Assembly (NCBI GenBank): GCA_951406725.2
Contig: OX597822.1
Coordinates: 83,886,001 to 83,950,000, forward strand
Reading direction: 5' to 3'
Length of the DNA: 64,000 bases
From: Octopus vulgaris
Taxonomy: Eukaryota
Part shown: piece after piece, positions 5,781 to 59,838 of the stretch
Numbering within the stretch: the first letter of the stretch is position 1
Layout of the letters: each line of letters begins with the position of its first letter
The notes under the pieces: model-generated
Told to the model about the DNA's origin: nothing
Database searches by the model: none
The model's input: the letters and a program-made list of their open reading frames with translations, nothing else
Made by a program: the position numbers and the translations under genes

Positions 5781-6419
5781 AAATAATAAGAGTAGAAATA
5801 AATATTATTAATTAATATCAATTTCAACCATTGGTCCAGCATACTTAAAAGAAGTCCATATATATATAACAATGATAAATCTCAGAGCTAGTTATAAACA
5901 GTAGCAGCAACACATCGTGACGTATATTTGCCATTTGAATATGGCTAACCCCTAAGGGTGAATGCTACTGTAGTTTGTAGCCCCAGGAGGACACCTCCTC
6001 CAGCTGGCTATAGACACACTTTCTGTGACCTATCAGTATTTGCAAAGGGAAGCCATCCTTCCCGTCTTCAACTTATGAAACACTGTTTATAACTCGCTCT
6101 GAGATTTATCAATGTTTGATTTCACTTTTCAATATCAGTGTCAATCGATACTGGATAAAGTATATGTATTTGTGAAGGGAACCAACTTCTCATCGACAAC
6201 TATGATTGTCACACGCCGATAACGGGTCAATACCCTGAAACTCGAGTCCTTGTGTATCATAAGTTGAAGACGGGAAGGATAGATTCCCTTTGCAAATACT
6301 GATAGAGCACAGAAAGTGTGTCTATAGCCAGCTGGAGGAGGTGTCCTCCTGGGGCTACAAACTACAGTAGCATTCACCCTTAGGGGTTAGCCATATTCAA
6401 ATGGCAAATATACGTCACC
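5781..6419 (+). mobile_element. Fold-back non-coding element between TA-rich tracts, with a variant hammerhead (Penelope pLTR/retrozyme-like)
   Basis: Inverted repeat of about 160 bp (5917-6078 vs 6257-6418); second inverted repeat (about 5873-5902 vs 6081-6110); hammerhead-like motif at 6210-6254. Confidence 0.7.
6210..6254 (+). ncRNA. Degenerate type I hammerhead-like motif (core CCGAUAA)
   Basis: cacacg CCGATAA c gggt-caat-accc t GAAA C-tcga-G TC cttgtg. Two core deviations, so probably inactive. Confidence 0.5.
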
Positions 6420-6440
6420 ATATATATATATATATATATA

Positions 6441-6726: not shown

Positions 6727-6746
6727 TATATATATATATATATATA

Positions 6747-7694
6747 AATTATTACAATATATAAAAGGGCTTAGTAAAATAAATTACTTTGCCGCATACT
6801 GAACTCATTAGAAATAGCAGCTAAAAAACTTTTTTAAAAACCATTTCTAATACTTAAAGAAAATCTCTTTTTTTTTATGTCTTTACCCCCAAACTTTCGT
6901 GAGTTGAGTTGACTAAACACTATACGAGAGAGATTTTCTTTAAGTATTAGAAATGGTTTTTAAAAAAGTTTTTTAGCTGCTATTTCTAATGAGTTCAGTA
7001 TGCGGCAAAGTAATTTATTTTACTAAGCCCTTTTATATATTGTAATAATTTGAATTCGCCTTAAATGGTCCCTTTGCATACTGAACACTTGGTGAAATTA
7101 ATTAATAATTAATTAATTTTACCCTCAATTGTTGAAATTATAATTAATCTCCCTCTAATTAATGCTTCGGATTTTACCGAAATAAGCAGAGTGTTTGTTG
7201 ATTTTAACCCACGCTGGTGGAAAGGGGAGGACAGAAATTCTTCGCTTGCATGTTTGAGTTTGTTGGCACTGTTAGTTACGAGCAGATCTTCGAAGGCGAT
7301 GAGAGGCCGAAAGAGTATGCTCTCACTTTCAGTGTTTTCAAATCCAAACCATGGAGTTTCTGAGCTGATGATAGAAGTGTCTTGATGACTAATCTTGAAA
7401 CGTACGTTCTCAAATAACCTTTGCATTTGATTTTTTTTATGTCTTTACCCCCAAACTTTCGTGAGTTGAGTTGACTAAACACTATACGAGAGAGATTTTC
7501 TTTAAGTATTAGAAATGGTTTTTAAAAAAGTTTTTTAGCTGCTATTTCTAATGAGTTCAGTATGCGGCAAAGTAATTTATTTTACTAAGCCCTTTTATAT
7601 ATTGTAATAATTTGAATTCGCCTTAAATGGTCCCTTTGCATACTGAACACTTGGTGAAATTAATTAATAATTAATTAATTTTACCCTCAATTGT

Positions 7695-7696
<2 letters not shown>
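6747..7696 (+). mobile_element. Hammerhead-bearing element: 562-bp unit in about 1.5 tandem copies, preceded by an inverted copy of about 120 bp, in (TA)n
   Basis: Direct repeat 6869-7135 = 7431-7696 (offset 562); 6747-6868 is the reverse complement of about 6929-7051; hammerhead at 7361-7412. Confidence 0.85.
7361..7412 (+). ncRNA. Type I hammerhead ribozyme motif with palindromic stem III
   Basis: tgag CTGATGA t aga...gtc-ttgat-gac...tct t GAAA C-gtac-G TT ctca. Confidence 0.8.
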
Positions 7697-7756
<60 letters not shown>

Positions 7757-7758
<2 letters not shown>

Positions 7759-8450
7759 GAACGACAGTTAAAATAATACGCATTCTTGTTTTATCAATGT
7801 ATTTCCTCAAAAGCTGGGGTTAGACAAGTACGTCATTTTTCTGTATAGTCTCCTTCCTTTCCGATGCACTTGGTCCACCGATCTACAACCTTGCGTATTC
7901 CCTCCAAGAAGAAGGTTTTCGGTTGATTGCGCAACCCTTTATGCACCGCTTCCTTAGCATCTTCATTCGTAGGAAATCGACGACCATGTAAAGCAATTTT
8001 TGTGGTCCAAATATACGATAGTCGGAAGGGGTGAGATCTGGGCTGTAGGCAGGGTGTTCCATTACCTCAAAACCCAATTGGTTAATGATTTCAACGGTCT
8101 GGGCGGCCCTGGTTTGGCGTGAATTGTCATGCAACAACAAAGCTTTCTTCGACAATAGGCTTTGGCGTTTAGAGCGACTTACTGGCTTCAGTTTGTTGGC
8201 CACCAAAGTACTATATCTTGCACTGTTGATCGTACATCCATTTTCTAGATAGTCTTCTAGTATAGGTCCTTTTGAATCTCAAGAACGGGTTGGCATCACC
8301 TTTCACGTGGAAGACTGAGTCTTGAATTTCTTTGCTGCTAGCGAGCCAGGATGTTTCCAGTCCATACTCTGTCTTTTGGATTCTGCCTAATAATGATAGA
8401 CTCACGTTTCATCTACCGTGACTATTCCACTCAAAAATTCTTCGCCCTCA

Positions 8451-13323: not shown

Positions 13324-14230
13324 GAGGGAAAAACAAGGAGAAGAAAATGGAGAATAAATGGATGTTATTACTGATTTATTTGCATGTTGTAGAAAGATGA
13401 CGTTTTTTTTAAAAAAAAAAAAGCATTACGAATAAATAGGAAGTTGATGGCTCAGTTAAGAAAAACAAAACGTAAGATGAACCTACATATATGTTTCTGT
13501 CAAGCCAACAAGTAGTTGGGAATTTCCAAAACGTGTTTAATATCAGGAAAAATGCCACATCCATACTATTTTATCGTTGGACTTCTTTAGGTTTCGAAAA
13601 GAGATTAGTCCACTTAGGTAATCATTAATTCTTTTAATATAATGATTACTTAAGTGGAGTTAGCTCTTTTTGAACCCTGAGGAAGTCCAACCATAAAATA
13701 GTATGAATGTGACAATTTCCTTGACATTAAACAACATGTTTTGGAGATTCCCATCTACTTGCTGGTTTGACAGAAACGTATATGTTTCTGTCAAGCCAAT
13801 AAGTAGTTGGGAATTTCCAAAACGTGTTTAATATCAGGAAAAATGCCACATCCATACTATTTTATCGTTGGACTTCTTCAGGGTTCGAAAAGAGGTTAGT
13901 CCACTTAGGTAATCATTAATTCTTTTAATATAATGATTACTTAAGTGGAGTTAGCTCTTTTTGAACCCTGAAGAAGTCCAACCATAAAGTAGTATGAATG
14001 TGACAATTTCCTTGACATTAAACAACATGTTTTGGAGATTCCCATCTACTTGCTGGTTTGACAGAACGTATATGTAGGTTCATCTTGCGTTTTTTATCTT
14101 TTTGCTTAAATTTTTAAGCTTTCAATTCCAATTTATTTGTAATGTTTTAAAAAAAACGTCATCTTTCTACATACAAATAAATTAGTAATTAGATCCTTTT
14201 ATTTTCCATTTTCTTCTCCATATTTCCCTC
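13324..14230. mobile_element. Palindromic Penelope pLTR-like block with four long-stem-II hammerhead copies
   Basis: Outer arms are diverged inverted repeats; internal 291-bp tandem duplication (13491 vs 13782); hammerhead cores on alternating strands. Confidence 0.75.
13963..14081 (+). ncRNA. Hammerhead motif with extended stem II (about 90 nt); one core A deleted in this copy
   Basis: gaacc CTGAAGA a gtc...gac a GAA(-)C gtatat GTA ggttc. The sister copy at 13673-13785 retains GAAAC. Confidence 0.65.
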
Positions 14231-14589: not shown

Positions 14590-16705
14590 AACATATTTAC
14601 AGGAAGATTCTTCTATAGTCATTAAAGATGCCGACGAAAGAGGATCCATTATAATAATGGACATGACACAATATATGGAAATTGTCTGAGAAATACTAAC
14701 TTTTCTAAACACAAATATAAACTAATGCAGATAAACAACAATGAGTAGAAATGGTAAATTAACAGAGAATGAGTTAAGGAAAAAGAAGTTAAAAAATGAG
14801 GTAAAATGTAGACTTCCAAAAATCTATGAAAACAGCTAAAAGTACCTCTATACACCCTATGTAAAGATTCCTGAACCATCTGACCCGAGATGACGTCCAA
14901 TGACAGGATCAGTTTCTAGAACCCAACAATTAAGCCAATTGCTTGACATAATTTGGAAATCTTTGTGCAGATTGGTTTCTAGCTTGATCAGAGATGACAT
15001 GGATTCCAAAACCATATTCCTGAACGAATAGATAAAAAGACAATTTTAGTTGGCTTTGACGTAATCAGTCTCTACACAAATATTCCTCATAGATTTGGAC
15101 AACAGGCAAAATTGTCGATAGAACCACAAGGATTTGTGGAGTAATTTCCAAGAATTTATTCTTGAAAGATTGCAATTAGTACTGGTAAATAACTATTTCT
15201 TCTTTGACAACAACTATTACATACACATACAAGGCACAGCAATTGTCCAAAAGCCACACCAACGTTGGTGACACCAGTTATTGGATACCTGGAAGAAAAA
15301 TCTCTATTCTATTTACAATTAGATTTGATCCGTATTTTCAAACGTATTTGATAAGTAATTAAAAAGACTCTTCGATGACTGCTTCATATTATGCTTACAA
15401 GAGTCCTGAAATTAATAAATGAAGCGAATGAAAGTCGAACTCCTTTTTCATAATTCAAGAAAATAAGACAGTTACAGACGCTTTCTACCGCATTGATACA
15501 GACACCAAAATTTAGATTTTAGATCTTGCTACCCTTCCAATACAAAAAGAAACACAACATTCACTAAAGCAATACTTATACGCTTAATACTTACAGAACA
15601 AATCTGACAAGAAAATTACTGGTATTTCTTTTACGATCAAAAAGTACCCGCAAAAGCTAACAAATCATGCCATGGACGAAGCAAACGAAATCCAGATCTC
15701 TATTTCTTGGGGACACATTTATATTGACGAGGAAGACAAAAATGCAAATATGAATATGCCAATTGTAGTCAACCATATTCCTAGGAACAGCATCCGGCAT
15801 TCAGCCAAATATTATCTTCCATTTCTACTTCAATCATTGAATCTCTGACAAAGAATTAACACATCACAAATCATCAAGAACCGAAGACTACCACAAATCA
15901 CAAGAGACTCCTCTCAATTGAAGATTCACATCAGAGAAAGAAGTGATGCAGAACACAAACTATGGAGACCCTCGTTGTGGAAGATGGGAAATAAGAAGCA
16001 AAGATTCAAGAATGAGAAGGAATTGAAAGTGAATGTAAACATGGATCGCAAAACAAAGAATCTCATTCACTGCATCACATGCCCACAGTGCAATGAGAAT
16101 TACAATGGAGCGACAGAAACAAAGCTAACCTGATGTGTAAATTTACATAAACAGAAAATTAAAGATTTATCTCATAGCAATGTTCCATATAGTAAATACT
16201 AGCAGTATCGCCCGGCGTTGCTCAGGTTTGTAAGGGAAATAACTATAAAGCATTTTTAGAGAGTTATAGCCAAAAAATAGCAAAAAAATGGAAAAAAATG
16301 ATGGTAAATTTATTTTTTTAGTTAAAAAAGATGGAGTTGCGTCCCCTAGACAGTTTGTGTTTCTGATTCTGGACCCCATGTCGAATTTATCGATTTTTTT
16401 CAGAACTGGGGGAACTTTTCAAAATTTTCGCTGCGTTAGTTTTGAATTATGACATTGGGCTATGTGTGTGTCAAGTTTCATCAGAATCGGTTGAAAGCCG
16501 TGGTCAGGGTGAAGGTACAAGCAAACAGACACACAGAAACACGCACAGACAAACTGCCGTTTATATATAGAGAGATTTAAATATTTGTGTAAATGGAAAA
16601 TTCAAAATATTTTGTTTTTACAAAGTAAAAGGTGAAAAGGAACAACTACGAAAGACAAAAGCATGCTTTGTAAGAATTCTAAATCCGACGCCATACCGGA
16701 AATAG
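14590..16705 (+). pseudogene. Decayed Penelope-like element ORF (reverse transcriptase + GIY-YIG endonuclease)
   Basis: SIVIKDADERGSIIIMD (about 14610); FDVISLYTNIP (15055); QGTA (15230); YLEEK; DDCF (15374); NLIHCITCPQCNENYNGATET (about 16058). Many stops and frameshifts; interrupted by a Helitron. Confidence 0.85.
16199..16575 (-). mobile_element. Non-autonomous Helitron (Lep1-like)
   Basis: On the minus strand it starts TC, has a CTGT-rich tract, a subterminal hairpin cctgagcaacgccggg, and ends CTAG. Inserted between A and T with no TSD; removing it restores the host reading frame. Confidence 0.85.
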
Positions 16706-19129: not shown

Positions 19130-19176
19130 TCTAAAAATACCTTAGGAATGAGAACCCAAGTTCGAAATTTCCCCAA

Positions 19177-19222
19177 GACACCTGATGAAGGCTGGAGGGT
19201 ACATCAGCCGAAACGTTGTGTT
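19177..19222 (+). ncRNA. Minimal type I hammerhead ribozyme (Penelope pLTR type)
   Basis: gacac CTGATGA a ggctg-gagggtacat-cagcc GAAA CG TT gtgtt. The AACGTT palindrome stands in place of stem III. Confidence 0.85.
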
Positions 19223-19559
19223 AACAATAAACAAGATGAGGAGAAAGATCCGTCACATGTAAATAATGTACATAATTCCTCATCTCTTAAATATAGAAGT
19301 GTATTATTTTTTGTAATTTTGAGATGCATATGCGATAACCAAATTAATTTCTTCTTGAAAGCTTTCAATAATTTACCTTCTTCGCTTTTATGTTTATCAG
19401 TAAGTAAAAGTCTAATTCATGTGGTGTTGAAAATTCTGTGAAAAGAAACAAATCTTTTCCAGCTACTGAGGTATATTCTTCTCTGCTGGAATGCTAAATC
19501 TCTTCAACGAAATAGCTATCGTATTTGATTTTTTATCCACGATTAATAAATATTGATTT

Positions 19560-24124: not shown

Positions 24125-24481
<357 letters not shown>

Positions 24482-24597
24482 TAATTCCAACAGCGGCTGG
24501 TGTTAATCTGTTTAAATCTTTCAATGTTCTCATAATACCTAAATTTGGAGGGAAACTAAGACCACAGAATAGTATATTTCGTGGCTTCAGTCCGTTC

Positions 24598-30550: not shown

Positions 30551-30698
30551 AGGCGCAGGCGTGGCTGAGTGGTAAGAGGCTTACTTCTCAACCACATGGT
30601 TCCGGGATAAGTCCCATTGCGTAGTAATTTGGGGAAGTGTCTTCGACTCTAGCCTCGGGCCAACTACAGCCTTCAGAGAGAAACTGAAAGAAGCTCCC
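30551..30698 (+). mobile_element. SINE family A, 5' half
   Basis: gcgtggctgagtggtaag...gaaactgaaagaagc. Confidence 0.75.
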
Positions 30699-32241
30699 AT
30701 TGCAGATGTGCAATATGTCCAGGGTTTTGTATTGTCTGAGAGACTTTTGTGTCATCTGCATAGCTAGCAAGAGTGGCTGCCTTAGCAACTGAGGGCATGT
30801 CTGAAAGGACCACTATGAACAGCAGTGACCCCAAGACAATGCTCTGTGGAATACCACTTGTTATTTGTGTTGTTTCATTGGAGGTGGCTCCATTGGCCAC
30901 CACTGCCTGCCTTCTATCTTTTAAGAAGTTGTGCAGCCACTCTCCAAGTTTTCCATCTATGCCGAGATCGCATAGTTTGTGGCAGATCTTACCATGGTCG
31001 GCTTTATCAAAGGCTTTTGCAAAGTCAAGATACATCATATCCACACTTGAGTCATTTAGTAGCTGTTTTAACACCCAGCCATAGTGTTGCAGGAGCTGTG
31101 TTAGACAGCTTCTACCTGGTTGAAATCCATGCTGGGTGTCAGTCAGCGAGTCATTTTCTTCAAGGAACATGATTAGTTTCTTGCGGACTATTCGTTCCAT
31201 GACTTTGCTGATGTATGAGGTCAGAGAGATAGGCCTATAATTTTTAGCATCTGCTCTGCTTCCTCCCTTATAGATAGGGTATATTATCCCTTCTTTCAAT
31301 TTGACTGGGAGCTTACCACTTGCAAGAAAGCTCTGAAAAAGAAGCTGTAGCGATTTTGCAAGGGATCTTTAGCACGATTTGAGAAGAATCACTGGAAATC
31401 CATCAGGTCCAGCAGCTGAGTCTCTGTCAATCTCAGCTATGGCCAGTGTGACATCATCATCTTCAATGTTAATGTACTCAAAATTTGCCTCTTTTGCTAC
31501 AGGTAAAATTCTGGTTTGTTTACTTGCCTGGATCCAAGGGGTGTAGTGAACACACGTTGGCATAGTTCGTTCAGTATTTCACTTATCCTCATGGGATTTC
31601 TTATGAGGGAACCATCTTTTTGAAAGAGAAGTCCTATTCTCTGGCGCACTGCGACCGTCTCTTTGGCAAACTTAAAGAAGGCCCTATGGTTTGACTTGAT
31701 ATTTTCTATAACCCAAGCTTCTTTATCTACTCTCTCCTTTTCATGAGACTGATGCAGACTTTTCTCAATTTCCATTAGCATTCTCTCGAGGCGAGACTTC
31801 TCACCACTTTTGGTGTGCTTGCTCAGGCGGTTCGCAGGCTTTGTCCGCCGTCTCATAAGAATCTTCCTTTCCCTAGGGATCCTGTTTTTGTGTGTGCTGG
31901 CTCTTCACACTGTGACATATTTGTCACATATGGTATGGCTTGTATTATGGACATGAAACGTTTGAGTTTCATATCAATGTCTGGTGTGGCAAGTCAATTA
32001 GGCCTATCCTGTTTGAGGACCTCTTTCTCAATCAACTTCCAGTTTGCTTCATGAAAGTTTACTTGGCGAGATTGTGGATGCTTCGTATAGGGTGTGCATC
32101 TTCTGGGGCTTTTGGTCCATACATAGACAGCTTATTATGTCGTGATCCGAAACCAATGTCGGTATCAGTTTAACATTATGGATAATGTCCATATTGTTTG
32201 TGAAGCAGAGATCCAGTATATTATTTGCCCTAGTGTAGCAC

Positions 32242-37659: not shown

Positions 37660-38170
37660 CCAAGTTTGTTTATTCCGGTAACATAAAAATCTGGAGTCCT
37701 GGAGCTGACGAACTTTCTATCCGCGCTTTCAGTATCGGTTTGACTTTTGAAGTTCTTTACTCGAAGGAAACCCATCAAGGTGCTTGAAAAAGTGGTAGTC
37801 GGTAGGAGAAAGGTCTGGGGAATAAGCTGGGTGGAGAAGAGCTTCGCAGCCAAGTTCCCTCAGCTTCTGAAACGTCGTGAATGAAACTTGTAGACGTGCA
37901 TTGTCATGAAGAAAGACTGGCTCTCTTCTGTTGACCAGTCTGGGACGGAGGAGCAGCAGTTTTTCGTTCATTTTGGCAATTTCATGAAATATGTTTCCGC
38001 AGAAATGGTTTTTCCGGGTTTCAAGAAGTTATAGTGGATAAGTACAGCAGTACACCACTAAACAGTCACCATAATTTTCTTTTTGAAGAGCTCAGGTTTA
38101 TGGAAGTTTTTCGCTGTTTCATTTTGGTTGAACCACTGCAAAGAACGTTTTTTATCATTGTACCCGTTGA
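37660..38170 (-). mobile_element. Mariner transposase remnant
   Basis: FLHDNAR...LHPAYSPDLSPTDYHFFKHLD. Confidence 0.88.
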
Positions 38171-53295: not shown

Positions 53296-53362
<67 letters not shown>

Positions 53363-53458
53363 TAAGGGCTCCTAAATTAAGATGCCGAGTGCTGGGAACA
53401 CAAAAAGGGGATGAATTTATCGAGAGTGAAAATCAAAAACGTTTACCGATAACTTTAA

Positions 53459-53536
53459 CAACTCGAACCGCGGTTTCTGCTTCTTTCTAGCAAAACACAG
53501 AATATGTTTGCTAAGGCTAGCTTCGTCAGCGAGTCG
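53459..53536 (-). ncRNA. Type I hammerhead ribozyme motif (inverted unit)
   Basis: Reverse complement of 53974-54051. Confidence 0.8.
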
Positions 53537-53973
53537 CCTAAATTGAATCGAGGTCTGCAGCGATGTGGGACCATGTGTTGGTCCCGACTACTAGCAGATC
53601 TTAACTTTTCAAATCTCTGCGCAGACGCAAAACTTACACGGCAGTATAGGGCATGCCGGGAAGAATTTTACGAATAAATCCATCATGTAATATGCGAATA
53701 TAAACAAGAAGGGTAGAAATATTATTTACTACCAGGTGCCCGGCACAAAAGTCGAATTAGTCATAAGACAAAAATATTATTCATATAGAAAAATATTATT
53801 CATGTAGTTATACAATTAAGGGCTCCTAAATTAAGATGCCGAGTGCTGGGAACACATGCCCTATACTGCCGTGTAAGTTTTGCGTCTGCGCAGAGATTTG
53901 AAAAGTTAAGATCCGCTAGTAGTCGGGACCAACACATGGTCCCACATCGCTGCAGACCTCGATTCAATTTAGG

Positions 53974-54051
53974 CGACTCGCTGACGAAGCTAGCCTTAGC
54001 AAACATATTCTGTGTTTTGCTAGAAAGAAGCAGAAACCGCGGTTCGAGTTG
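53974..54051 (+). ncRNA. Type I hammerhead ribozyme motif
   Basis: cgactcg CTGACGA a gct...tagcaaa..tttgcta...agc a GAAA C-cgcg-G TT cgagttg. 7-bp stem I; predicted cut after 54044. Confidence 0.85.
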
Positions 54052-54427
54052 TTAAAGTTATCGGTAAACGTTTTTGATTTTCACTCTCGATAAATTCATC
54101 CCCTTTTTGTGTTCCCAGCACTCGGCATCTTAATTTAGGAGCCCTTAATTGTATAACTACATGAATAATATTTTTCTATATGAATAATATTTTTGTCTTA
54201 TGACTAATTCGTCTTTTGTGCTGGGCACCTGGTAGCAAATAATATTTCTACCCTTCTTGTTTATATTCGCATATTACATCATGGATTTATTCGTAAAATT
54301 CTTCCCGGCATGCCCTATACTGCCGTGTAAGTTTTGCGTCTGCGCAGAGATTTGAAAAGTTAAGATCTGCTAGTAGTCGGGACCAACACATGGTCCCACA
54401 TCGCTGCAGACCTCGATTCAATTTAGG

Positions 54428-54505
54428 CGACTCGCTGACGAAGCTAGCCTTAGCAAACATATTCTGTGTTTTGCTAGAAAGAAGCAGAAACCGCGGTTCG
54501 AGTTG
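54428..54505 (+). ncRNA. Type I hammerhead ribozyme motif
   Basis: Same sequence as 53974-54051; predicted cut after 54498. Confidence 0.85.
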
Positions 54506-54880
54506 TTAAAGTTATCGGTAAACGTTTTTGATTTTCACTCTCGATAAATTCATCCCCTTTTGTGTTCCCAGCACTCGGCATCTTAATTTAGGAGCCCTTA
54601 ATTGTATAACTACATGAATAATATTTTTCTATATGAATAATATTTTTGTCTTATGACTAATTCGTCTTTTGTGCTGGGCACCTGGTAGTAAATAATATTT
54701 CTACCCTTCTTGTTTATATTCGCATATTACATGATGGATTTATTCGTAAAATTCTTCCCGGCATGCCCTATACTGCCGTGTAAGTTTTGCGTCTGCGCAG
54801 AGATTTGAAAAGTTAAGATCTGCTAGTAGTCGGGACCAACACATGGTCCCACATCGCTGCAGACCTCGATTCGATTTAGG

Positions 54881-54958
54881 CGACTCGCTGACGAAGCTAG
54901 CCTTAGCAAACATATTCTGTGTTTTGCTAGAAAGAAGCAGAAACCGCGGTTCGAGTTG
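54881..54958 (+). ncRNA. Type I hammerhead ribozyme motif
   Basis: Same sequence as 53974-54051; predicted cut after 54951. Confidence 0.85.
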
Positions 54959-55175
54959 TTAAAGTTATCGGTAAACGTTTTTGATTTTCACTCTCGATAA
55001 ATTCATCCCCTTTTTGTGTTCCCAGCACTCGGCATCTTAATTTAGGAGCCCTTAATTGTATAACTACATGAATAATATTTTTCTATATGAATAATATTTT
55101 TGTCTTATGACTAATTCGTCTTTTGTGCTGGGCACCTGGTAGTAAATAATATTTCTACCCTTCTTGTTTATATTC

Positions 55176-55206
<31 letters not shown>

Positions 55207-56110: not shown

Positions 56111-57312
56111 ATTATCACCATCAGCGACATTGTTCCTTTCACTCGACATTTAATCAGAACTGGTTTGAGTCTTGATGTTTTGTTTTTGTGTTCTACTCTA
56201 TTATTCTCTTCCCTCTCTCTCTCAGCTATATATGCATGTGTGTGTACGTGTAGGTGTGTGTGGTAGCATATCTGCATGTGTGTGTAGTGTAGCATGTATG
56301 TGTGTGTACGTGTGTGCAACACCTATTCCTGGTATCTTTCAGAATATTGTTTAAATATATAAGCTTAGGTTATATATTTGTCTTCCCCGTGTAGATTCCA
56401 TCTCCACCTATCTCTATAAACAGTTTTCTAATTTCAGTCCCCGCTCCTTCCTTGTTATTACAGATTTTCTACTGTTTACAGATTGTTTTAGATTTAGTTA
56501 TTTTCTCCTTTACTCTTAGAAACACATTACTACATGTCGGGATTTTTAACAGACGTCACTTCTTGACCTGCTGGATCATGACATCCATATCCGACTGATT
56601 GCTTTATTCTCCCTCTGTGTGTGTGGTGTACATCAGAATACCTTCACATGTCATTCTCTGAAACTTTTTCTATTCTATTGTATGTGGATACCACGTCTGT
56701 TCTGTTGGTATTTCATAATGCTAGCATCAACTTCCAGTGAATTGAAACTTCAATCCTGCTTTGCTCATATTTGTTCTCTGTGATTCTCTTTTCGCTTAGA
56801 CTTGAATGCCAGGAATATTTTGATTCGTTATTTCTTACCAGCCTTTGCATATTCTGTAGAATCTTAATATATGGCAGCTTCACTATATGTTTTTAATAAT
56901 TTCAAGTGGGAAGATTCTGAACCTGATCTGCAACCAAGAAATCTCTCGGTCTTAGTATTTACATTTGTGTTTTACATTCACTATTGTAGCTTTTCTTTAT
57001 CAACTTCTCATTTGCCAATCTCGTATTGGCCATGGACTGTTTTTTTCTATTAATATGACGTTTCGTATTTCTATTTCAATTTACATTTTAATTTTTGAAC
57101 AATTTAATGTCTTTTTTTTTCTTCTCCTCAGAACTGTCTGTTACTCCCAGCCTATTGGTTTCATAAAGCTCTCAGGAAAACATGAAACAGCTTTCTATTT
57201 CTCTGTGTTTGATAGCTGCTCTGTGTTTGATAGTATTTCATTTCTAATTATCCTTTAATAGATATTTTATGGCTCTACTGCAGATATTTTATAATGATCT
57301 TATAGTTAGTTG

Positions 57313-57570
57313 CTAAAACCCCATCACTAATAAACAACACGTCAAAATTAATGACAGCCACATCTCATAAGAAATACTCTGAACAACAGCACGAACAGAT
57401 CCTAAGAAAGCATACTTAGAATTAGAAAACCCGCCAGCCCTCACCACTGAATAACTCCAATCCTTGAAATAGCTAAAAATAACATTATACTTATCCCTCC
57501 ACCCATAACCACAAAATAACCAATTATTATATAATATCCGCAAAAACAAAGCAAAAGATGACCTCAACAA
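57313..57570 (-). pseudogene. ND1: Nuclear copy of a mitochondrial NADH dehydrogenase subunit 1 fragment (NUMT)
   Basis: AGGFSNSKYAFLGSVRAVVQSISYE matches the ND1 signature GWxSNSKYxxxGxxRAxAQxISYE; short and decayed, in nuclear repeat context. Confidence 0.85.
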
Positions 57571-58275: not shown

Positions 58276-58479
<204 letters not shown>

Positions 58480-58480
<1 letters not shown>

Positions 58481-59140
58481 TTCAGTAGTTTTATTTTTAT
58501 AGCGTGCTTTCACTTCACTACCGAGCGCAGCTCTGTGTGCCTTAGGTATGTGCTGTGATTTGTTGTGATGCTCTGATGGTTATTGTATGGAAAGTGTTCT
58601 GCGTAGGATTTGTGCAGTGCCTAGTAGTGCAATTTTCTGTATGTTATATGTGTTTGTAAGTCCTGGTGTTTTTGTTATGTATTTGTCTGAATATTTTTTT
58701 ATCATGCCTAATGCACCTACTATGATAAGAATTGTTTCTGTTTTTAGATTCCACATTCTGATTACCTCTATTTCCAGGTCTTTGTGTTTTGAAAGTTTCT
58801 CCATTTTTTTAGAGACACGTTGTCATCTGCCGGTATTGATACATCAATTAGAAAGCATTTTTTTTTCTTCATGATCTCTGACAACTATATCTGGTCTGTT
58901 GGCCTTAATTTCTCTATCTGTGTGTATTGGCATATCCCAGAGTATGGTTGCTTTCTCGTTTTCTGTGACCTTTTCTGGTGTGTGCCTATACCATCTTTTT
59001 TCTGTTGTCATTCCATAATGTTGGCATAGCTTCCAGTGTATGTAGGTTCCAACTCTGTCATGTCTGTGAATATAGTCCTTCTTAGCCAGGACTGGGCAGC
59101 CAGAGATAATATGATTTATTGTTTCTTGTCCATCTCCACA
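58480..59140 (-). mobile_element. 5'-truncated R4/Dong-like LINE 3' end inside (AAT)n
   Basis: NRPDIVV; KDLEIEVIRMWNLKTETILIIVGALG...IQKIALLGTAQILRR; (TTA)n on both flanks. Confidence 0.92.
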
Positions 59141-59224: not shown

Positions 59225-59432
59225 TCAAAGACGTGGCACAGTATCCAATATTGTGATGCTGTAGATTGCAGATATTGTGTGTACCAGGGGGTGTGTACGG
59301 TCTGTCAAGTCGGAAGAAGGAACTCCGACTGACAGTACTTTACGCCATATGCGTGCAGTTCTAAATAAAACCGATTTTTGCAATACACCTAGATTGTAGG
59401 ATATTTCTAAAGTGTCCAGATGTTTCTTCAGG
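59225..59432 (-). mobile_element. RLE LINE 3' end, different family, tail in (GAT)n
   Basis: LKKHLDTLEISYNLGVLQKSVLFRTARIWRKVL plus UTR. Confidence 0.75.
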
Positions 59433-59680
59433 TAAAGATTGTTTGCCAACATAACATGGCAGTCCTGGTTTAGGACGAATATTAGTTCAAAACAATATCT
59501 TTTCACCACATTCACAGATATTGTTTTGAGCTGAGTGGGTATGCTAGATTCCCTTGTTTGAAAATATAAGGACACAGATCATGTCGTATAGCCAACTGGA
59601 GATGATGTCTCCTGGGGCTAAATTACAGCAACATTCGTCCTAAAACAGGACTGCCATATTATGTTGGCAAACAATCTTTA
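59433..59680 (+). mobile_element. Structured non-coding fragment related to the 5781-6419 element, with a 48-bp inverted duplication
   Basis: 59433-59480 is the near reverse complement of 59633-59680; shares tagattccctt...atagcca.ctggag...ctcctggggcta with 6280-6410. Confidence 0.65.
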
Positions 59681-59838
59681 CTCCAAAGTCCTGTTGCTGA
59701 ATATCTCACGTTGTGAGATTTAAAAATAGTAATTTTCTAATATATATAATTTAGCTAAAATCCTTTAAGAGATGATAGCCTCCTAGTTCTTCAGTTTATA
59801 CCAGTATTCAATGAAAACTAAATATATTAGTTTTGCAT

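Follow-up and report, generated by a model that had tools for sequence, protein, structure and literature searches.

Our data indicate that the structured motif at positions 6270-6418 is the conserved 3′ part of a short, highly abundant repeat with a hammerhead ribozyme sequence. The motif is thus not a new ribozyme; it belongs, as a cis element, to a mobile element of a known kind. All positions refer to the window, i.e., the whole 64,000-nucleotide stretch of Octopus vulgaris contig OX597822.1 analyzed here. Our data further suggest that the motif is probably an RNA element that recruits and positions the reverse transcriptase (RT) of a Penelope-like element (PLE), similar to the internal initiation described for Poseidon.

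Anatomy and predicted fold of the motif

The motif had been noticed as two distant stretches, 6324-6410 and 59589-59672, proposed to align with each other. This alignment was borne out: the two stretches are homologous and the same hairpins can be folded in both (Table 1; referred to here as copy 1 and copy 2). With 6270-6418 as the query, nhmmer retrieved 59537-59675 in the 64-kb window at an E value of 5.3e-10, and a pattern spanning the 3′ arm of P1 and the linker matched three times in the window and zero times in each of 100 shuffles. We conclude that the observed feature is real. The earlier note had counted two copies, while nhmmer found four in the window, the additional ones being inverted partners at 5914-6083 and 59432-59483; the query 6270-6418 also matched an inverted copy at 6065-5917, and copy 2 as a query matched its own inverted 3′ piece at 59485-59434. 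A covariance model built from three sequences returned only these four known copies of the window below an E value of 0.05.

Table 1. Coordinates of the repeat and its parts at the two loci of the window
Feature	Position	Strand	Remarks
Locus 1
49-nt tail after the short end of the inverted copy	5868-5916	-	abuts (TA)n at ~5858-5867
Inverted, 5′-truncated partner with the whole motif	5917-6083	-	compared with the direct copy, 5 differences over 167 nt
Head of the direct copy, a repeat of the last 35 nt of the tail	6082-6116	+	33/35 identical
Non-coding spacer	6117-6209	+	no Pfam match in six frames
Type I hammerhead	6210-6254	+	core 6216-6222, stem II 6224-6235, GAAA 6237-6240, stem III 6240-6247 (a palindrome), cleavage predicted after 6248
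Pb, a small hairpin (caca/tgtg) located upstream of P1	6308-6320	+	pair probabilities 0.72-0.75; gaca/tgtc in copy 2
P1 (6325-6329/6353-6357), with the 4x3 internal loop and the hairpin P2 (6334-6349) that it encloses	6325-6357	+	variants at 6326, 6338, 6345, 6346
Conserved linker	6358-6375	+	C at 6374 in most other copies
Hairpin P3	6376-6387	+	two compensatory pairs compared with copy 2, hand alignment
Hairpin P4	6390-6405	+	pair probabilities 0.92-1.0; a loose end of X7 has a linked change
13-nt A/C-rich spacer and short 3′ end (putative first RT start site), then (TA)n	6406-6418	+
Locus 2
Inverted 52-nt partner (P3, P4, spacer)	59432-59483	-	joined to the non-LTR retrotransposon-like 3′ fragment 59225-59431
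Fold-back junction between inverted and direct parts	59484-59532	.
Copy 2, diverged subfamily, 5′-truncated before the hammerhead	59533-59681	+	P1/P2 59589-59620, P3 59637-59651, P4 59653-59668, 13-nt spacer to 59681
Copy 2 tail, aligning in register with that of the copy 1 family	59682-59722	+	at least 41 nt

As plus-strand RNA, both copies are predicted to fold better than their shuffles (copy 1, z -2.34, with 3 of 200 shuffles as good; copy 2, z -3.82, with 0 of 200), and the minus strand gave z scores of -1.78 and -2.52, respectively. In the predicted folds of copies 1 and 2, P2, P3, and P4 have pair probabilities of 0.82-1.0. P1 reaches 0.87-0.99 in copy 2 and only 0.06-0.14 in copy 1 (fold of 6082-6418), where a rival hairpin at 6354-6371 has a probability of approximately 0.86. 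Taken as single-stranded DNA, the motif also folds better than shuffles on both strands (z -2.5 to -3.4). It thus folds about as well as DNA as it does as RNA, which is a point against reading it as an RNA signal.

Neither copy appears to encode a protein: we found no Pfam match in any frame of either copy, and indels between the copies break the frame. Since the repeat unit is non-coding, the conserved folds are not attributable to protein constraint.

Abundance across sequencing runs

Part of 5880-6430 is contained in at least 20 runs (eight studies, four organism labels) among the matches listed. Four public runs (X1, X5, X7, and X8) were aligned to 6117-6422 at 80% likeness; none of the listed runs is recorded as RNA, the RNA label of X8 being a guess. 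Contigs matching this interval numbered 4,103 in X1, 2,505 in X5, 1,695 in X7, and 149 in X8. Summed contig depth, which is not equivalent to copy number, was 9.5 (X1), 11.1 (X5), 9.0 (X7), and 6.4 (X8) times higher at 6326-6336 than at 6216-6226. This rise from 5′ to 3′ has the shape expected from 5′ truncation, and upstream divergence may contribute to it. Behind 6418, contigs of X1, X5, and X7 continue into letters resembling the 49-nt tail, and the loose ends at this position (52, 36, and 24 contigs, respectively) have a tail-like consensus. Agreement among them is only 0.46-0.5, compared to at least 0.61 in the other listed rows; we infer that tailed copies are mixed with copies that end at 6418, as the reference itself does.

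Pattern scans of viral contigs, metagenomes, and prokaryote genomes revealed no homologues outside the host group. The scan of viral contigs returned zero matches, as did the first metagenome scan, in which the pattern fixed a minority letter at 6374. A looser pattern matched two metagenome loci and two prokaryote-genome loci; none of them scored with the model at the match, the sole hit had an E value of 3.4, and we rejected all four as chance.

The hammerhead upstream of the motif

Motif and hammerhead belong to one high-copy repeat of PLE type, a link that the earlier note did not draw. The hammerhead of copy 1 had been described as a variant. It does deviate, and part of the deviation is decay, with the letters at 6221 (G8A) and 6250 being private to copy 1: in all four runs, G accounts for 99-100% of the depth both at 6221 (G8) and at 6250, where it restores stem I. 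Hammerhead position 4 is C or U across copies (U share of 0.36-0.58), and the variation at 6224 and 6235 is of the sort expected from a stem II pair. When copy 1 is folded in full, the hammerhead is predicted to lie on its own rod, apart from P1-P4, with ~6160-6208 pairing with ~6256-6300 and so extending hammerhead stem I into the rod. The upstream segment common to both copies is part of this rod. Type I hammerheads with a palindromic stem III are thought to cleave as dimers (PMC4209133; PMC6765202). Counted from the predicted cut, the short end of the repeat lies 170 nt downstream and the tail end 219 nt downstream.

A second, unrelated minimal type I hammerhead, with a canonical core and a palindromic stem III, is located at 19182-19222 (+) within ~19130-19300. 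It follows directly after a long (AAT)n and probably represents a further pLTR fragment of a PLE; behind it, the motif is absent.

Covariation and variation within the fold

Compensatory changes in the stems, the basis on which the motif was brought forward, held in part. P3 (two pairs) and P2 (one pair) differ between the copies in a compensatory manner in a hand alignment only, while P1 (tagcc/ggcta) and the gcca/tggc core of P4 are invariant between copies 1 and 2. RNAalifold, applied to a MAFFT alignment, found changes on both sides in 3 of 30 pairs, with zero of these in P1-P4. Covariation between copy 1 and copy 2 comes from two independent copies only and is hence thin. The shared upstream "tagatt" is likewise present in both copies and partly a chance likeness, as two of the letters (6281 and 6283) are in the minority: 95-100% of the depth reads another letter at these positions in all four runs.

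The sequencing runs provided further changes in the stems. A linked G-C to A-U change in P2 appears in the loose-end consensuses of three of the four runs, its two sides changing together behind 6337 in X1 (10 contigs), X8 (6), and X5 (5). A linked U-A to C-G change in P4 appears in a loose end of one of the four runs; this X7 loose end, behind 6373 (17 contigs), combines a changed P3 loop with the P4 change, of which only three letters of the 3′ arm are visible. Judging from the contigs, these linked stem changes are a few events inherited by many copies.

We found at least 16 variants within 6270-6418; of those listed, 12 fall at unpaired positions and the other 4 within P1 or P2. Stems make up 58 of the 149 positions, and the depletion, with 4 of the 16 listed variants in stems, is not significant. 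Three of the four listed stem variants retain G-U pairing on the hammerhead strand and give A-C, a broken pair, on the other strand. The fourth, 6338, is the pairing partner of 6345, and the variant shares of the two positions (6338/6345) are 0.13/0.16 in X1, 0.12/0.12 in X5, 0.13/0.15 in X7, and 0.23/0.10 in X8. The linker tolerates changes, other copies having variants at 6358, 6361, and 6374. The earlier note considered the motif a selected RNA structure; the linked stem changes in independent copies, few as these events are, and the bias toward the hammerhead strand lend this partial support.

Two loci with the insertion pattern of Penelope-like elements

Both loci (two of two) combine 5′ truncation with an inverted, 5′-truncated partner, the pattern of PLE insertions. 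One copy per locus is followed by a tail of 40-50 nt, namely the inverted copy at locus 1 and the direct copy at locus 2; therefore, each locus has one short end and one tailed end, on opposite partners. The tail-less end falls exactly 13 nt after P4 in both diverged copies. PLE insertions are reported to be mostly 5′-truncated and frequently to have, at the 5′ end, a truncated copy in inverted orientation; one of the ends bears a tail of 30-40 bp, and insertion is biased toward microsatellites (PMC8557442). The tails observed here, 49 nt and at least 41 nt, are longer than the published 30-40 bp, which is a point against the PLE reading.

Locus 1 is bordered by (TA)n on both sides, and its direct copy, 6082-6418, stops without a tail. 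Two X8 contigs carry the last seven letters of the tail in front of 6117, and one X1 contig runs from 6418 through 24 tail-like letters to 6150. Since the end of the tail recurs before the hammerhead, a head-to-tail monomer would close at 14 + 337 = 351 nt, a unit length of approximately 351 nt that rests on one locus plus three contigs. Head-to-tail junctions are present among the listed contigs, with no complete dimer or full tandem array, and no listed piece spans the whole stretch. A separate, nested repeat adjoins locus 1 at 6746-7705: 7491-7613 recurs without a difference, in inverted orientation, at 6746-6868, and 6869-7142 has a direct repeat (99%) at 7431-7705, next to (TA)n. This arrangement may be a PLE-type partial tandem with an inverted end.

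Locus 2 is flanked by a retrotransposon-like fragment and, on the opposite side, by a short run of AT. The inverted piece stops 13 nt after P4, at the position homologous to 6418, even though the 13-nt spacers have only 7 letters in common. The tail of copy 2 is identical to the tail of locus 1 at 23 of 41 positions without gaps, a local score attained by 1 of 2000 shuffles and by 14 of 5000 random pieces of the window. We rejected 59682-59722 as the upstream half of the adjacent non-LTR fragment, given that it aligns in register with the copy 1 tail; its minus frame presumably has only a short "ATG" peptide in common with non-LTR elements. The adjacent fragment, 59225-59431, gave no Pfam match, and its translation resembles the C-terminal part of a protein from a non-LTR retrotransposon. 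Truncated 3′ ends of this non-LTR retrotransposon-like type lie at 58372-59140 and 59225-59431 (both -) and at 24173-24485. Their features are a CCHC knuckle, a nuclease motif similar to PD..D, and tails of (GAT)n/(AAT)n; we take them to be R4/Dong-like. Among these, 58372-58684 and 24173-24485 are 97% alike.

Proposed role of the motif

The protein of Poseidon reportedly requires approximately 170 nt downstream of its hammerhead, nicks AT-rich DNA, and starts reverse transcription at two internal RNA sites whose interval equals the tail, with no need for hammerhead cleavage (PMC11167929). By analogy, we favor P1-P4 as the putative binding site of the PLE protein, which would set the first start 13 nt downstream. 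Tandem transcripts or circles would be made, with their hammerheads cutting as dimers via the palindromic stem III. A PLE reverse transcriptase-endonuclease supplied in trans would bind Pb-P4 and nick AT-rich DNA, and priming would take place inside the RNA, either 13 nt past P4 (the short end) or ~50 nt further (the tail end). Early termination and a strand switch could then give rise to the inverted-plus-direct pair. Such a scheme would account for the retention of the motif in every insertion and the usual loss of the hammerhead.

The earlier note had listed an RT-recognition signal among its readings. The fixed 3′ end, the tail, and the inverted partners favor it; the function itself is deduced from these footprints, and the partner PLE was not found. 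In the window, the covariance model had no match near a PLE relic at ~14590-16200 or behind the hammerhead at 19182-19222. The predicted disfavoring of P1 in the copy 1 fold is a further point against an RT-recognition role.

Alternative explanations

We considered whether the copies carry the same signal and are simply the truncated pLTR ends of an autonomous PLE, with the tail leading into its ORF. PLE insertions are mostly 5′-truncated and look similar (PMC8557442), the Poseidon region after the hammerhead is the start of its ORF (PMC11167929), and only short contig pieces were observed here. However, the tail stands directly before the spacer and hammerhead at 6082-6116 and in two X8 contigs, the X1 contig joins it to 6150, and the broken frame and lack of Pfam matches in any frame argue against an ORF; the ORF list and Pfam likewise showed no RT and GIY-YIG ORF in or beside either copy. 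We consider an autonomous origin unlikely. We regard it as similarly improbable that the structure was selected for stability or ligation of circular RNA, for control of hammerhead folding, or as an internal promoter, with the RT start set by nearby sequence only. Circles of retrozymes are described as highly self-paired and accumulate (PMC7229834), PLE pLTRs contain promoters (PMC6765202), and the alternative P1 fold in copy 1 would suit such a role. Against this, the short end is fixed 13 nt from P4 with only 7 of 13 spacer letters in common, and the predicted hammerhead rod is separate from P1-P4.

A role as a second, new self-cleaving ribozyme or as a ligand-binding RNA is very unlikely. 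The invariant internal loop and conserved single-stranded linker could form a core and no Rfam family fits, but the repeat family already keeps a near-canonical hammerhead, the linker varies at three positions, and the place of the motif is accounted for by the end of the element. Home-made, relaxed descriptors of HDV-like and twister ribozymes, run on both strands and without a positive control, returned zero matches in six of six scans. The Rfam search that had been suggested at the outset gave zero matches in the window at gathering score, and around the two loci an E value of up to 10 yielded 3 and 8 chance-level matches, none of them a ribozyme. The idea of an unknown catalytic RNA is hence unsupported. 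We give equally little credence to a DNA-level role of the hairpins, in single-stranded or cruciform state, whether as a site for an endonuclease or as the terminus of a transposon (rolling-circle or DNA), with the hammerhead as a passenger. Both strands fold as DNA better than shuffles, recognition by the Penelope endonuclease needed tail DNA (cited in PMC11167929), and inverted repeats flank both loci. Yet stem variants pair as G-U on the hammerhead strand and as A-C on the other, and inverted arms of 170 and 52 nt are what 5′ truncation gives, unlike fixed terminal repeats. A tRNA-derived SINE was also rejected: there were zero A-box matches and two B-box-like words with one mismatch, and ARAGORN predicted zero genes in the window.

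Other repeats in the window

A Penelope-like ORF for RT and GIY-YIG, decayed through numerous stops and frameshifts, is located at ~14590-16200 (+), interrupted by another repeat at ~16200-16570 and with a possible remainder at ~16580-16700. Its RT motifs were read by eye, and one cluster among its ESM look-alikes has GIY-YIG in 10% of its members. At 53318-55176, tandem units of ~454 nt (99%) follow an inverted copy (96-97%), giving an inverted-plus-tandem layout in which a hammerhead scan found none. Two direct copies of ~291 nt (97%), with inverted ends on each, lie at 13485-14075. We also recognized by eye a LINE-type RT fragment of 231 amino acids at 30673-31368 (-) and two mariner-like transposase fragments at 7883-8278 (-) and 37729-38028 (-). 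A nuclear copy of a fragment of mitochondrial NADH dehydrogenase subunit 1 (Pfam NADHdh, E value of 4.9e-10) lies at ~57300-57460 (-).

Comparison with known systems

The published systems are compared here as far as the excerpts of the cited papers describe them. The repeat has a type I hammerhead within a non-coding unit (zero Pfam matches in six frames) that falls within ~150-450 nt, as expected of retrozymes. It resembles the non-LTR retrozymes of metazoans in its non-coding unit of ~350 nt, high copy number, predicted self-paired RNA, and head-to-tail junction, as well as in the type I hammerhead with a short palindromic stem III and a mismatch at the base of stem II (as in axolotl HHR_Amex2); units of mussel retrozymes measure 350-390 bp (PMC7229834). 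Unlike retrozymes, the copies here are dispersed, 5′-truncated inverted-plus-direct insertions with a PLE tail, and most of the depth lies 3′ of the hammerhead. The excerpted retrozyme papers (PMC7229834; bioRxiv 10.64898/2026.07.22.740005) do not describe a conserved multi-hairpin element at a fixed end. Retrozymes are defined by tandem arrays, cleavage, and circles, and we therefore file the element, from its sequence, as retrozyme-like. Retrozymes have been proposed to be PLE derivatives on the grounds of co-occurrence with, and likeness to, PLE pLTRs in vertebrates (bioRxiv 10.64898/2026.07.22.740005). Mobilization of retrozymes by PLEs has so far been argued from such co-occurrence and pLTR likeness, while the present unit is of retrozyme size and bears the insertion footprint itself.

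Similar to the pLTR and tail of EN+ PLEs such as Poseidon PAc of Anolis (PMC11167929; PMC8557442; PMC4209133), the repeat has a hammerhead, a distance of ~170 nt, and two 3′ ends separated by a tail. It also shares with EN+ PLEs the inverted 5′-truncated partner, and the (TA)n on both sides of locus 1 may reflect the AT-rich or (TA)n targets of these elements. In contrast to Poseidon PAc, the region here does not code for protein, its short end is placed 13 nt beyond a hairpin, its tail measures ~50 nt, and the subfamilies have four or five conserved stems in common. In the literature covered, which was mostly other than subscription papers, we found no description of the repeat family or of a conserved multi-hairpin at the RT start of PLEs or retrozymes beyond PMC11167929. 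The repeat may already be catalogued, Repbase and Dfam having been outside the scope of the search. The kind of element is already known, and the gain is mechanistic rather than categorical.

In R2 and other non-LTR retrotransposons, a folded 3′ UTR RNA is bound by the RT before target-primed reverse transcription. Priming in these R2-type systems occurs at the RNA's 3′ end, while here it would be internal to a tandem or circular RNA, and the likeness to the 3′ UTR structures is one of description only. To HDV-like, twister, and other Rfam ribozymes, the likeness consists of a small multi-stem RNA inside a retroelement, with no Rfam match here.

Only one in vitro system has been described for PLE RNA and start-site choice (PMC11167929). 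With an end at a fixed distance in two diverged subfamilies, the choice of template and start site by a PLE RT becomes testable, and thousands of copies in at least two subfamilies would allow covariation to be modeled properly and a minimal template to be derived for studies of binding and structure. A bolder and rather tentative reading is that the covarying RNA domain serves the PLE RT as a ruler, the cDNA starting 13 nt past the last hairpin on a tandem or circular hammerhead RNA. If true, this would be direct footprint evidence for retrozyme movement by PLE internal initiation. Given that PLE reverse transcriptases are reported to share their last common ancestor with telomerase RT (PMC8557442), such a ruler would, if true, be the PLE counterpart of the RT-binding and template-boundary elements of telomerase RNA.
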